From the NCBI GenBank assembly GCA_946405785.1, contig CAMJIH010000002.1:950-64949 (forward strand): DNA of 64,000 bases, read 5' to 3'. Origin of the DNA: an uncultured bacterium (GTDB lineage Bacteria > Patescibacteriota > Gracilibacteria > Absconditabacterales > Absconditicoccaceae). The notes beneath the pieces were generated by a model. That model was not told the DNA's origin and ran no database searches. It saw nothing but the letters and a program-made list of their open reading frames with translations. Position numbers and translations under genes: made by a program. This document shows positions 5,501-46,044 of this stretch, in pieces (the stretch's first letter is position 1; each line of letters starts with the position of its first letter).

Positions 5501-7181
5501 GGCATTTATGTCTTTATTTGAGAATGTTGTAAAAGGAGACATTAATGCAAGTAATCGCATGAAAAAATTTCTCAAACAAGAAATGGCCGTTATGAAGATG
5601 CAAATCAAGAATCTTACTATGAGTATAGATATTATTAATAATTGAAAATCTGCATATCAAATCGATAATTCAGATCGTGAAAAAGGATGGAAATTTAAGG
5701 TATGAAAATTCTTAGACAAACATCCATGGGGAACAGCTATAGGAAGTATTGCTCTTGGTGTATGACTATGAGCTGTTACTGCATGAGCTGGTGCTGTTGC
5801 ATGAGCTGCTATTTCAACAGGAGTATTTGGAGCTTATGTGGGAGGAACAAATGCTATTAAGAAATGGACTCATCATACAAAAGAACAAAATACACATGAA
5901 AAGAATATAGTAACTGACTATAGAAACGAACAACAAAAAATACAACAATGGCAAAATGATGCACTAAATGGTTCTTGGTGGAGAAAATATAAAGCAAAGA
6001 GACAACTAGCTTTATATGATCAAACAACACAAGAAAATATTAAATTAACAAATCAAATTGAAGAATATATTACAAATCTATCAGCTAAAATCTGACAATT
6101 AACTCCACAAGAAGAAAACTTTATGAAATGTAACCTTATTGAAGGTTGGGCCCGTCTAAAGTATTATAGAGAAATGTGACATAACTTCCTAGCATCTGAA
6201 AATGTTGATAAAACAGAAAAGGATATGATGAGATTAGAAAAAGCAATTACTCTATGATTACAAAAGATTAATAAAACAACAACAGACATAGAAACAACAA
6301 TGACTGCTACAAATACTCTTGGAACAAATATAACTTATGATGTATTAAAAAATGACTTGAAAGCAAGTTATGATAAATCATTAATCCAATTTAAGAGAGA
6401 AAGAAGAAATTTGGCTCTTAAATATGGAATAGGAACAGCTGCTGTGTCAATCTGAGCATCTTTAGCTGTACAATATGCTCTTTGAAGTTGAGTATTTAGT
6501 CATGAATCACCAGCATTTAGTGCCACAAAAGCTACATCAGATAATTTTGCTTTATGAAAGGCTGAATGATTGACAAATAATATAGCTGTAGATACTCATT
6601 CAGTATTATCTTCAGCTCCAGATGGATCAACAATAAATATGTTCTATTGAGCTGGTACTGATGCAACACCTGTAATACCATGACGTCTTACACCAAGTGA
6701 TCTTGCAACAAAGATTTCAAATGTTAATAGTTATATTAATTCACTTCCAACTAAAACTGTTGGAGATATTTGACCTGGTTTGACAGCAGCTGATAAAGCA
6801 ACATTCTTAACAGAACTTAGCGGATTATCAGGAGGAACATGAACAAATTGAGTTTTGCAAAATATGAGACATGCAGATAGTATCTGGCAATTAGCAGAAT
6901 GATTATCATTCTCATGAAAATCTTGATTAGCTACTGTAACTCTTGCTCAAGATCCATGATTAAATGTTGTATGAACAACAACACATACTTTAGCAGATAG
7001 AGTTGCAAATTGATATATCGAAGTATCAAAAGATGCTGTACTTTGAAAGAAATCATGGTTCTTCTGAGTACCTTTGTTCTTTAATACTTTTAAAGATAGA
7101 AAGGGTACAGATGATACAACAGATCAAAAGTGGAACAATCAAAATGCACAACAACAGCAACAACAACCAAATAATCCGTAA
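2514..7181 (+). CDS. Giant coiled-coil membrane protein, 1555 aa, function unknown
   Basis: One frame links track ORFs 4002-4592, 5040-5645 and 5838-6095 through many TGA codons. There is an in-frame TAA at 2481 upstream, and the first ATG is at 2514. About 800 aa are K/E/L heptad-like, followed by Gly/Ala-rich hydrophobic segments (GVGLGAVTAGAGAVAGAAISTGVFGAYVGG; YGIGTAAVSIGASLAVQYALG). After that comes a Gly/Thr-rich C-terminal region ending QQQQQQPNNP. Ends in TAA at 7179-7181. Confidence 0.75.
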
Positions 7182-8430: not shown

Positions 8431-8454
8431 GGAGCTTTAGAGAGCTCCTTTTTT
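8431..8454. terminator. Hairpin shared by convergent genes
   Basis: Stem ggagct / agctcc with a T-run on the plus strand and an A-run (T-run on the minus strand) on the other side. It overlaps the last codons of mraY. Confidence 0.55.
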
Positions 8455-9528
8455 CATCATTATATATTCAATTAGTATTAATAGCATTCATGCAGCAGCA
8501 AGTATTCATTGAATTAACCATGCTTCCATAACAATTGTAGTTTCTTTCATTCATTTATACTCAAGAAGATGATGGAATGGTGCAACAGTGAATAATTTTT
8601 TCTTAAATACTTTCTTCCAAAAAATCTGTAGGAAACTTGAGAAGAATTCAACAATAAAGAACCCAAATATGATAAGGAATGGAATTAAAATACCAAACCT
8701 CATATTCATAAGATATATGAGCGAGGATAGCATTCATCACAGGGCAAATGCTCAAGAATCTCACATAAATAGTTTTGCTGGATTAATATTGAAAAATAAA
8801 AATGCGAGTAATGTGGCAACAAGAATTCATACAATACTACTAGCAAGATATGTTCAATTTAAGAAAGTCATTGCTGCAAAACAAGCTAAGATTATAGTCA
8901 TTAATCATCAAGCTAATCCATCCAATCAATCAGTAATATTGATGGCGTTAACAACAGCAACTGTTGCAATAAATGTTAATATAGGGAATAAGATTCAAAC
9001 TTGGATTTTACCTGCTATTGGCCATAAATTGATATAATCAATTCATAATTTTACATAGAACCAATAAGAAATCCATCAAGAAAATAAGAACATACCTACA
9101 AGTTTTGCTTTTGCACTAAGTCATTTAACTTTTCAATAATCTCTAATATTTAAATAGTCATCAACCAATCAAATTAGTCCCATAGAGAAAAATCAGAAAA
9201 GAATGATATAGGTTTCTCTTGAGTTCCAAAGAGAATTACTAATGAATCATAGATGTTGTAGTGCAAATGATCATAGAATCATAATAAGCATAACAATGAG
9301 GAATAATCCTCATCCCATCGTTGGTGTTCATTGTTTATGTGCATGAAGTTTTGTGAATATTTCAGATTTTTCACCAGTTACTGTGTTCTCACGAATGGTT
9401 TTACCAGCTTTTAACTTATGTAGTAACTTAATATAGAATGGATAAAGGATGAATGAAAGACAGAAACTAGCTAATGAACAAAATATTATCTGACTTAATT
9501 TTCATAAGGTTCAAGTTGCTTCAAGCAT
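8437..9528 (-). CDS. mraY: Phospho-N-acetylmuramoyl-pentapeptide transferase
   Basis: Continuous minus-strand frame containing track ORF 8551-8733. Motifs: HKQGTPTMGG, LVDDYLNI, NITDGLDGLAGG, NINPAKLFMGDSGA, APFHHLLEYK[TGA]. Product is 363 aa. Confidence 0.9.
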
Positions 9529-9665
9529 ATCAAATAATAAGAATATAAAGCATATTGTATCCTCGATAGGCTGAGTGTATTTTTATATCGATAAAATTCA
9601 AGTGTGATAAAAAACAATAGTTAATAGCTATGATTATGAAAATTATTATTCGTAAAATTTTACTC

Positions 9666-9693
9666 TTGCAATAGGTAATAAAAAGTCTAATCT
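9666..9693 (+). promoter_or_regulatory. Possible promoter of the thrS leader transcript
   Basis: TTGCAA, 16 nt spacer, TAATCT, about 30 nt upstream of the leader ATG. Confidence 0.4.
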
Positions 9694-9722
9694 AATTCTA
9701 GATTTAATCTTTTTAGGAATAA

Positions 9723-9770
9723 ATGTCTTATTCTACAATTACTACCACTACTACAACCACAACCGAGTAA
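9723..9770 (+). CDS. Thr-rich leader peptide MSYSTITTTTTTTTE
   Basis: AGGA at 9715-9718, ATG at 9723, eight consecutive Thr codons at 9741-9764, TAA at 9768-9770. Confidence 0.7.
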   Translation: MSYSTITTTTTTTTE

Positions 9771-9831
9771 TTCGGCAGGGTTTTCGTGGTATGTAATCCT
9801 TTGAAAACTCTTGCCTGTCAAGGGCTTTTTA
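9771..9831 (+). promoter_or_regulatory. Putative transcription attenuator (alternative antiterminator and terminator) upstream of thrS
   Basis: The terminator is ctcttg (9808-9813) / caaggg (9819-9824) plus cTTTTTaTTT. The competing stem pairs ggcagggttttc (9774-9785) with gaaaactcttgcc (9803-15). Confidence 0.6.
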
Positions 9832-9869
9832 TTTACTGAAAAGATGTTTTATATTCTTTAGTTTATCTT

Positions 9870-11747
9870 ATGGAAGATTTGTTATTAAGAAAGAGACATT
9901 CTCTTTCACATATCCTTGCACAAGCAGTGCAAAGAGAACAACAACGAGATGTAGAAGTTGCTATTTGACCTGCTATAGATAATGGATTTTATTATGATTT
10001 CTTATTTAGTTCAGAGAAACAAATAAAAGAGGAGGATCTTAAGAAAATCCAAAATCAAATGGAAAAAATCGTTAAAGAAAATCAAGATTTTGTATTATTC
10101 TCTTTGCCAGATGATGCATCAAAGAAATTGGTTGTTGAGTTGATGAAACAAAAGTATAAGGAAGAAATGAGATCAGAATTCGCTGCTGCTTGAGAAGAAA
10201 TTACATTCTATGCTAATACTATTGTTGAGTGAGCAAAAGATGCTTTATTAAGAGGTATTGATCAAGAATATATTAAATATTATGAAGGAGTAACAAAATA
10301 TCTTCAAGAATTATTCCCAGAAAAATTTAATGGAAAATTTGTTACATTCTTAGATATGTGTGAAGGTCCTCATGTATCAAATACTAAAGAGTTAGATACA
10401 AAGGCATTTAAACTAGATAAACTTGCATGAGCATATTGGAGAGGAAATTCAAATAATGTGATGATGGTAAGAGTTTATGGTTTAGCTTTTGATACTAAAG
10501 AAGAGCTCCAGAATTACCAACATATGATGGAGGAAGCTAAGAAAAGAGATCACAGAATTCTAGGACAAAAGTTAAAAATCTTTACAATTTCACCACTAGT
10601 TTGATCAGGATTGCCTTTGCTTCAACCAAATGGAATGATAATCAGAAAAGAAGTAGAGGACTATTTACGAGAACTTCATAAAGATAAGGGTTATTTAAGA
10701 GTTTGGACTCCTCATTTGGCTAAAGAAGAATTATATAAAACTTCAGGTCATGCTGATAAATTCTGAGATGAATTGTTTAGAGTAAAAGGTAAAGAAGAAA
10801 GTTTCTTTATGAAACCTATGAACTGTCCCCATCATATGCAGATATTTGCTGATAATCAATTTAGTTACCGTGATATGCCTATCAGATATTTTGAACCAGC
10901 TACAGTATATAGAGATGAAAAAACAGGACAATTATCATGATTAACTCGTGTAAGATCAATTACTCAAGATGATGGTCATCTCTTCTGTCGTGTATCACAA
11001 ATTACTGAAGAAGTATGAACAATTGTACAAATCATTAAAGAGTTCTATACAACATTAGGAATGATTGATGATTATTGGGTAAGACTTTCAATCAGAGGAC
11101 CTGAAGGAAAATATCTTTGAGATGACAGTGTATGGGAAAAAGCAGAATGAGCATTAAGAGCTGCTTCAGAAAAATATGATTTACCATATAAAATCTGAGT
11201 ATGAGAAGCTGCATTCTACTGACCAAAACTTGATTTTATGTTCAAAGATGCAATTGGAAGAGAATGGCAATTAGCAACAATTCAATGTGATTTTAACTTG
11301 CCAGTAAGATTTGATCTTTCATTTACTAATGAGCAAGGTGAAAAAGAAAGACCAGTTGTTATCCACAGAGCAATCTCAGGATCATTAGAAAGATTTATGT
11401 GAGTAATGATTGAACAATTCTGAGGTGCTTTCCCTCTATGGTTAGCTCCAGTTCAGTTCCAAATTGTACCAGTCGCAGATAAATTTAATGATTACGCATT
11501 TGAATTAGCTGCAAGATTAAGAAAAGATGATTTTAGAGTAAAGGTAGATGATTCAACAGATAGCTTCTCTAAAAAGATCCGTAATGCGGAATTGATGAAA
11601 GTTCCATATACATTAATTGTATGAGAAAAAGAAGTTGAATGAAAATCTGTATCAGTAAGAGAGTTTAGAAGTAAAAAACAATATACATTAAAGACTGAAG
11701 AACTAATAGAACAAGTAATGGTTGAAAGAAAAGAAAGAAAAATTTAA
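9870..11747 (+). CDS. thrS: Threonyl-tRNA synthetase, 625 aa, apparently lacking the N-terminal TGS domain
   Basis: It starts directly at the RHS.SH.LAQAV / [13 protein letters not shown] region. Other motifs: [66 protein letters not shown]. It is continuous only with TGA=Gly. Confidence 0.9.
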
Positions 11748-11760
11748 TTATACTATAAAA

Positions 11761-11798
11761 AGAGGGGATTTTCTTTAAAAATTCTCCTCTTTTTTTTG
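11761..11798 (+). terminator. Rho-independent terminator after thrS
   Basis: 8-bp stem agagggga / tctcctct (one G-U pair) followed by 8 T. Confidence 0.7.

Positions 11799-45021: not shown

Positions 45022-46044
<1,023 letters not shown>

Follow-up and report, generated by a model that had tools for sequence, protein, structure and literature searches.

A putative ribosome-mediated attenuator with a threonine-run leader peptide upstream of thrS in Absconditabacteria and Gracilibacteria

We analysed a 64,000-nucleotide stretch of DNA (hereafter the window) from an uncultured bacterium of the Absconditicoccaceae (assembly GCA_946405785.1, contig CAMJIH010000002.1, positions 950 to 64,949), in which thrS, the gene for threonyl-tRNA synthetase (ThrRS), is preceded by a mini open reading frame (ORF) rich in Thr codons and by an RNA segment that can fold either as a terminator or as an antiterminator. 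The genome is low in G+C (28.8%) and uses TGA as a sense codon: translation with table 11 fragments every gene of the window, whereas table 25, in which TGA is Gly, keeps the genes whole. In thrS itself, an in-frame TGA at 9966-9968 falls on a conserved G of ThrRS. The protein is 89-93% identical to its homologues in SR1/Absconditabacteria, including human oral taxon HOT-345, and features the Pfam domains tRNA-synt_2b, HGTP_anticodon and tRNA_SAD (class II synthetase, anticodon-binding domain and second additional domain). With its own terminator at the 3' end (Table 1), thrS forms a monocistronic unit. The left neighbour, mraY (8437-9528), is encoded on the minus strand, so the two genes diverge from a promoter region, the 341-nt gap 9529-9869, and a terminator within this gap must be part of the thrS leader; an origin of the hairpin at 9808-9824 as the end of an upstream gene is thereby ruled out. 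Many genes of the window end in intrinsic terminators of -5 to -12 kcal/mol, indicating that this mode of termination is in use. No tRNA genes were detected in the window, and hence no tRNA-Thr near thrS.

The leader ORF (ATG TCT TAT TCT ACA ATT ACT ACC ACT ACT ACA ACC ACA ACC GAG TAA) devotes nine of its 15 codons to Thr, eight of them in succession, compared to a Thr share of 5.2% of codons in the genes of the window, and its stop codon is separated from the thrS ATG by 99 nt (9771-9869). An (ACN)x8 pattern occurs only once on both strands of the window and never in 100 shuffles, and the variation of third codon positions within the run shows that it is no simple repeat. Ile is represented by a single codon (ATT). 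The codon ACC, which accounts for 3.5% of Thr codons in the genes of the window and for none of the 24 in thrS, is used for three of the nine in the leader; pooled over the related loci described below, its enrichment is modest (0.30 versus 0.20, p = 0.02, relatedness uncorrected). A first-pass annotation made from the sequence had described this ORF, placing an AGGA at 9715-9718, the ATG at 9723, nine Thr codons with a run at 9741-9764 and a distance of 99 nt to thrS, and on recheck all of these values were exact.

Table 1 Features of the thrS leader region and the thrS transcription unit in the window.
Feature	Coordinates	Strand	Remarks
-35-like hexamer TTGCAA, putative leader/thrS promoter	9666..9671	+	predicted from sequence
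-10-like hexamer TAATCT	9688..9693	+	predicted transcription start near 9700
Leader start context: TTTAATCTTTTT motif at -20, then AGGA (9715-9718)	9703..9718	+	motif class frequent before genes of the window
Leader ORF, peptide MSYSTITTTTTTTTE and stop	9723..9770	+	15 codons; homologous Thr-rich mini-ORFs at about 30 related loci
Regulatory Thr codons	9735..9764	+	9735-9737 and run 9741-9764; 3/9 are the rare ACC
Region 1, Thr codons pairing with 9786-9797 in ribosome-free RNA	9738..9748	+	minimum free energy (MFE) structure of 9723-9840
Small hairpin CCGA/TCGG, stop codon in loop	9763..9775	+	87.8% paired in 27-locus alignment; 3/4 pairs changed on both sides
Region 2: antiterminator 5' arm GGCAGGGTTTTC (9774-9785), then GTGGTATGTAAT (9786-9797) pairing with region 1	9774..9797	+	core AGG(A)GTTTT conserved across loci
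Region 3: GAAAACTCTTGCC, antiterminator 3' arm and terminator 5' arm	9803..9815	+	conserved core AAAACTC(C/T)TGCC
Terminator hairpin CTCTTG-cctgt-CAAGGG (9808-9813 / 9819-9824)	9808..9824	+	AAAA (9804-9807) can lengthen the stem by pairing with the T tract
T tract TTTTTATTT	9826..9834	+	from sequence
thrS start-context motif TTTTATATTCTTTA	9847..9860	+	kept in close relatives; putative translation signal or promoter-like element
thrS (threonyl-tRNA synthetase, 625 aa)	9870..11747	+	in-frame TGA read as Gly; start ATG at 9870
thrS 3' terminator	11762..11789	+	-9.2 kcal/mol hairpin, then TTTTTTTT

The terminator hairpin, which is followed by CTTTTTATTT, is the sole terminator-like site between 9300 and 10100, a segment in which 0.1 such sites are expected. 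The ribosome-free RNA 9723-9840 has an MFE of -25.1 kcal/mol (z = -2.2) and contains, besides the stop-codon hairpin and the terminator, a stem between regions 1 and 2 (9738-9748 / 9786-9797). This 1:2 stem goes beyond the first description of the element, and its presence gives the leader the full four-region layout of textbook attenuators; its equilibrium outcome varies with the transcript end and among relatives. Enforcing the antiterminator (9774-9785 / 9803-9815) costs 3.2 kcal/mol relative to the free fold (-21.9 versus -25.1 kcal/mol). The effect of a ribosome was represented by masked folding, in which the bases under the ribosome are made unpairable. With the ORF masked, corresponding to a ribosome on the Thr codons, the antiterminator (-18.3 kcal/mol) beats the terminator (-7.8 kcal/mol); a ribosome on the stop codon instead leaves the terminator as the only one to form (-7.8 kcal/mol). 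In terms of probability, the terminator reaches 0.85 when the stop codon is occupied and does not exceed 0.02 whichever Thr codon the ribosome sits on. The terminator and antiterminator thus fold as the first-pass annotation had described them, at exactly its coordinates, and the comparison of conformer energies that it had suggested finds both of them stable, mutually exclusive and switching as predicted, for the RNA of the window as well as for that of almost every relative.

Taken together with the comparative data below, the sequence elements and the folding calculations make it probable (roughly 85%) that the region is a ribosome-mediated transcription attenuator coupling thrS expression to the charging of Thr-tRNA. 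Transcription would start at about 9700 from the promoter TTGCAA-16-TAATCT, and a ribosome would translate the 15-codon leader. With plentiful Thr-tRNA, the ribosome would reach the stop codon (9768-9770) and cover the start of region 2 (from 9774 onward), leaving region 3 (9803-9815) free to form the terminator with 9819-9824, so that RNA polymerase would stop in the T tract at 9826-9834. With scarce Thr-tRNA, the ribosome would stall in the eight-Thr run (9741-9764), covering region 1 and leaving region 2 free; regions 2 and 3 would then pair as the antiterminator, the terminator would be blocked, and polymerase would read into thrS. If the leader were not translated, the Thr codons at 9738-9748 would pair with 9786-9797 and the terminator would form again. 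Of this scheme, the analysis shows the sequence elements, their conservation, the thermodynamic switch and the covariation of the terminator; translation of the leader, termination at the hairpin in vivo, coupling of transcription with translation in these bacteria and Thr-tRNA charging as the physiological signal are inferred. The same logic, in which a ribosome that reaches the stop codon causes termination and one stalled at Thr causes read-through, had been proposed in the first-pass annotation, and it is supported by both the masked folding and the conservation of the element.

The conservation was assessed in a comparative set obtained by a ThrRS protein scan with one genome per species, comprising 80 thrS loci (here designated by L numbers) from Absconditabacteria, Gracilibacteria and neighbours. 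Mini-ORFs were counted if they lay on the sense strand no farther than 300 nt before thrS, ran from ATG to TAA or TAG, spanned up to 30 codons and had four or more Thr in a stretch of six codons. Such mini-ORFs are present at 21 of the 78 loci with enough upstream sequence and at none in antisense orientation; from the background elsewhere in the loci (0.0029 per 300 nt) about 0.2 would be expected among 78, corresponding to an enrichment of about 90-fold. The leader peptides diverge widely (MKQLTGTTTTTTD, MNHSIETITTSTTTTMV, MVAQLVTTTTNLTSS and MKTTLSTTTTTTTTTIA, among others) while the Thr cluster is constant. In 20 of the 21 loci, a hairpin of -6 to -20 kcal/mol with a T tract lies 19-37 nt past the leader stop, and in 20 of the 21 a ribosome placed at the stop codon gives a mean pairing probability of the terminator stem of 0.85-0.98. 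A ribosome on the Thr codons brings the probability of the terminator to about zero in most of the 21 loci. When the spacer from the ribosome to the terminator, and nothing else, is shuffled, most shuffles regain the terminator; at 19 of the 21 loci, the share of shuffles with a probability as low as that of the real sequence is 7% or less. Furthermore, a scan for leaders of any amino acid, requiring a leader, a terminator and a long ORF, over both strands of 81 sequences (621 kb) returned 23 Thr leaders, all of them upstream of thrS, compared to eight for the other amino acids combined. The scan of thrS upstream regions in relatives that the first-pass annotation had called for therefore finds the Thr mini-ORF and terminator conserved in many of them (21 of 78, or about 30 with the covariance models).

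These models derive from an alignment across distant loci that begins at the final Thr codons and ends with the T tract, with the consensus ...ACC GAn TAA nTCGG nAGG(A)GTTTT ... AAAACTCCTGCC ... AGGAGTTTTTTT, which shows regions 2 and 4 to be near-copies of each other, each complementary to region 3. The alignment was used to build a pair of covariance models, R1 for the antiterminator and R2 for the terminator. When R1 was run over both strands of the same 81 sequences, matches with E < 0.02 were found solely on the sense strand upstream of thrS, and a search of 32 selected sequences with R2 led back to the same 27 loci. The models added further leaders, namely MKTTLSTTTTTTTTTIA (L016), MVT-G-LVTTTTTNTSIK (L033), MVAQLDTLTTTTLSPIG (L049), MLRQPTDKTITPETQ (L044), MVGLTAPTTVTTTTD (L042) and weaker ones, so that the family comprises about 30 loci from Absconditabacteria and Gracilibacteria. 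When 27 loci were aligned to the fitted model, the terminator and the stop-codon hairpin covaried significantly: 87.6% of their positions are paired and 29 cells show changes on both sides, a score matched by none of 500 shuffles; slid-register controls reach 38-60%. The antiterminator is 77% paired, above every slid register (33-66%). Its helix register differs between lineages, with a bulge at 9809 in the window, and region 3 has to remain complementary to two partners. Aligned with MAFFT, the close group proved too conserved for covariation.

Part of the leader with no regulatory role in this scheme is conserved as well: seven loci (L065, L066, L079, L049, L023, L062 and L054) share a peptide start 'MVAQL' or 'M(K/R)QL' and the nucleotides ATGGTCGCACAACTTG, preceded at a distance of about 10 nt by an ACCAAC box. 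Such conservation exceeds the need of a plain Thr sensor, and together with the conserved 5' untranslated region the 'QL' or 'MVAQL' start may form a second layer of control, for example a nascent-peptide effect or a structure at the start codon. A hairpin between the ACCAAC of the 5' untranslated region and 'CAACTTGG' of the leader was rejected, as its pairing is inconsistent across loci.

The predicted promoter recurs in the window and seven close loci as TTGCAa or TTGACA, a 16-nt spacer and TAnnnT, the -10 variants being TAATCT, TAAACT or TACACT with constant spacing in all eight aligned sequences. The heptamer CTCTTGC occurs twice, at 9663-9669 by the -35 box and at 9808-9814 in the 5' arm of the terminator, and when 9660-9872 is folded, the first of the two copies pairs with the 3' arm of the terminator; this duplication is irrelevant if transcription starts near 9700, and is probably a coincidence. 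As for translation, a T-rich motif TTTA-N1-4-T[TC][ACT]T (also written TTTAT / TTTATATTCTTTA or TTTA...TTCTTT) stands before 23 of the window's 50 genes, in most cases between -20 and -22, compared to a background of 0.1 per 40 nt. It is found, for example, before the leader ORF (9703-9714) and before thrS. That the leader carries the same -20 motif as the real genes of the window supports the view that it looks like a genuine start to the organism. The first-pass annotation had pointed instead to the leader's own AGGA; this sequence is present, but a role as a functional Shine-Dalgarno site is unsupported and improbable, since only two of 50 genes in the window have such a site and the AGGA is unconserved in relatives. 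The gene thrS itself lacks a Shine-Dalgarno site, and the 45 nt between the terminator and its ATG are AU-rich, with one small local hairpin as the predicted fold.

Several observations weigh against attenuation by Thr-tRNA charging. The terminator of the window is weak, consisting of a 6-bp stem with one G-U pair worth -3.5 kcal/mol (-7.8 kcal/mol with the A/U extension); a C separates the stem from the T tract, and the hairpin falls at the weak end of the genome's range, the stems of relatives reaching -8 to -20. When the ribosome-free RNA is cut at 9824, the antiterminator is favoured at equilibrium and the probability of the terminator is only 0.12, so the branch leading from absent translation to termination depends on kinetics and the A/U extension. 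Covariation of the antiterminator in the model-fitted alignment is not significant, with 50 of 500 shuffles reaching its score; the helix is conserved in sequence without covarying, and thermodynamics and sequence conservation are what argue for it. Switching in silico is poor at five loci (L054, L066, L019, L008 and L009). Most leaders have no Shine-Dalgarno site, leaving the context of the start codon as the indication of their translation, and the conserved TTTTATATTCTTTA between the terminator and thrS would, if it acted as a promoter, bypass the attenuator. Most of the 78 loci are leaderless, including the close relatives L005 and L006 (ThrRS 83% identical), which means that the element is dispensable. 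These two loci keep a TTGCAT-16-TAAAAT promoter directly before thrS, and it looks as though, judging from the sequences, the leader cassette has been lost from, or is absent between, an otherwise conserved promoter and gene. L005 additionally has a tRNA-Cys gene (1691-1764) just upstream of thrS.

The weakness of the terminator in the window would also suit a different output, in which the leader, the terminator and the alternative hairpin are all real but sense general translation capacity, with read-through upon any slowing of ribosomes, or in which the element is mainly a constitutive partial terminator that keeps thrS low. The conserved non-Thr start of the peptide ('QL', 'MVAQL') fits such an output, as do several distant leaders that are poor in Thr, such as MVTQLGTSTSILSPTIS, MVA(G)LGTSTYLNSSIIL and MVT(G)LGTSICKSLSTIS. 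Thr is nevertheless the only enriched amino acid, with runs of four to nine in most leaders; the scan over all amino acids yields Thr leaders almost exclusively, every one of them linked to thrS, and it is at Thr positions that stalling frees the antiterminator. The link between the amino acid and its cognate synthetase is hard to explain otherwise, and we consider this output very unlikely. A weak terminator could also mean that intrinsic termination is beside the point and that the mini-ORF is translated and regulates thrS via translation, mRNA stability or Rho; alternatively, thrS might be expressed mostly from the motif at 9847-9860, the leader being a separate gene for a small RNA or peptide. 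Conservation of this motif 10 nt upstream of thrS, and the occurrence of its class before many genes, would be compatible with a promoter, and trans-acting small RNAs derived from attenuators are known (PMC6614838). The -20 motif is, however, also found before genes only 16-21 nt apart within apparent operons, where a translation signal fits better than a promoter, and the hairpin with its T tract is retained in 20 of 21 loci, with covariation, and the stretch that the antiterminator takes from the terminator is precisely its 5' arm. Regulation by these other routes is likewise judged very unlikely. The genome is AT-rich and prone to repeats, which leaves room for the idea that a low-complexity ACN repeat lies by chance beside an unrelated hairpin and has no function. 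This idea has next to no probability: the run is expected zero times in shuffles and varies at third codon positions, and the roughly 90-fold enrichment upstream of thrS in relatives, together with the conserved switch logic, refutes it.

Attenuation by Thr-tRNA charging thus remains the preferred reading for thrS. A further possibility is an old, vertically inherited attenuator family common to Absconditabacteria (SR1) and Gracilibacteria, defined by the strands AGGAGTTTT / AAAACTCCTGCC / AGGAGTTTTT together with leaders that follow the pattern M-x-x-Q/G-L-(x)-Thr run. We advance this inherited family tentatively, at somewhat less than an even chance. If it were true, it would be the first cis-regulatory RNA switch in these code-reassigned candidate-phyla bacteria and would provide the first indirect evidence of coupled transcription and translation in them.

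Some members of the set carry TGA within the leader. In L033 (about 1950-2000), L035 (about 1731-1780) and L028 (about 732-780) it takes the place of codon 4 (MVT-TGA-L...), which in other members is CAA (Gln), and in L060 (2857-2910) it follows the Thr run (MLALLETTTTTLL-TGA-EIL). Since the codon-4 TGA precedes the Thr run, the switch of L033, L035 and L028 works only if TGA is decoded as Gly; under the standard code, translation would stop before the run. Leaders of this kind would be a natural reporter for the decoding of TGA as Gly. At a number of Gracilibacteria loci, unrelated accessory genes lie between the attenuator and thrS (L016 2199-2886, L033 2060-2979, L035 1852-2988, L042 464-2962, L062 1361-2976, L027 and L030), among them genes for a 23S rRNA intervening-sequence protein, ASCH/DUF3850, VKOR, a KAP NTPase, a YhcG PDDEXK nuclease and a KilA-N protein. 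This stretch looks like a site of insertion, and genes inserted there would fall under the control of the attenuator. On the minus strand of L028, from a Gracilibacteria metagenome-assembled genome, a Leu-rich mini-ORF, MHNFSHISLALLLLLGFSERLL (plus-strand coordinates 6811-6879), and a -8.2 kcal/mol terminator stand before an HMGL-like gene of the isopropylmalate / citramalate synthase type, in what looks like a second, Leu-type leader attenuator in the group.

Gene regulation in candidate phyla radiation (CPR) bacteria is little explored, their genomes being tiny and holding few regulators. The group is host-dependent and is not expected to synthesise its own amino acids; in such bacteria the element points to Thr-tRNA charging as a quantity that is monitored. 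A conserved leader-peptide attenuator would mean that CPR bacteria use RNA switches sensed by the ribosome, and attenuation would imply that transcription and translation are coupled closely enough in them for it to work. For annotators, the element provides a recognisable small gene and RNA structure, with two covariance models to find them.

Within the window the leader stands by itself: before leuS (26959), metG (49955), hisS (60250) and pheS (45022-46044, minus strand), where the upstream gaps measure 71-145 nt, no comparable leader is recognisable, as the first-pass annotation had noted. Its remark that no T-box-like element is present was likewise borne out by Rfam covariance searches of the locus and the window. 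The T-box family RF00230 gave no match with E up to 10 in 9400-10000 and none at the gathering score in the window or in 18 leaderless relatives; no Rfam family reached its gathering score across positions 1-64000, and in 9400-10000 the only match of any other family with E up to 10 was a sub-threshold one to Thr_leader. We found no description of a leader-peptide attenuator in the literature on the candidate phyla radiation, Patescibacteria, Gracilibacteria and Absconditabacteria, a search outside which most subscription journals fell. The first-pass annotation had deemed the element unusual both for this lineage and for a synthetase gene; the former agrees with our literature search, but the latter was overstated, as attenuators are described for pheST, trpS and leuS and predicted for a hisS paralogue.

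Among the known systems that control the same gene, the T-box of Firmicutes thrS resembles the present element in sensing the charging of tRNA-Thr and in choosing between terminator and antiterminator, but it senses the uncharged tRNA directly and without translation. In the translational operator of E. coli thrS, through which ThrRS represses its own synthesis, the protein binds tRNA-like hairpins at the ribosome binding site, in contrast to the translated Thr run and the intrinsic terminator found here, 45 nt before a start codon without a Shine-Dalgarno site. Attenuation of a synthetase gene by cognate codons in a leader peptide is exemplified by E. coli pheM-pheST. That system and the attenuators of Streptomyces trpS and leuS follow the same logic, in which low charging at codons of the own amino acid leads to more synthetase; amino acid, gene and lineage all differ here. 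Classical attenuators have been described for pheST in gamma-proteobacteria and for trpS and leuS in Streptomyces (Seliverstov 2005, PMC1262725), and a His-leader attenuator has been predicted for a hisS paralogue of Bacillus (PMC2965389). In S. lividans, a 'thrL' upstream of thrS is listed, a weak candidate with only two Thr codons and no clear terminator (PMC8079986). It shares with the present leader the short ORF ahead of thrS and a proposed dependence on Thr, whereas here eight to nine Thr codons are combined with a terminator, an antiterminator and broad conservation. With the thrL attenuator of the E. coli thr operon (Rfam Thr_leader, RF00506), the element shares a short Thr-rich leader, a four-region RNA and mutually exclusive hairpins between which the position of the ribosome decides. 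The target of thrL is the biosynthetic thrABC, whereas here it is the synthetase gene thrS; furthermore, with its one ATT Ile codon the present leader has Thr as the sole signal, and phylum and genetic code differ as well. The match to RF00506 over 9719-9832 scores 15.6 bits (E = 3.2), below the gathering score of 55, and the element is an analogue of the enterobacterial Thr_leader, not a homologue. The type of mechanism is therefore already known; new here are the family, the lineage and thrS as a target with a convincing Thr run. If the attenuator operates as proposed, thrS would join the short list of classically attenuated synthetase genes, in a role that is filled by T-boxes in Firmicutes and by ThrRS autorepression in E. 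coli.

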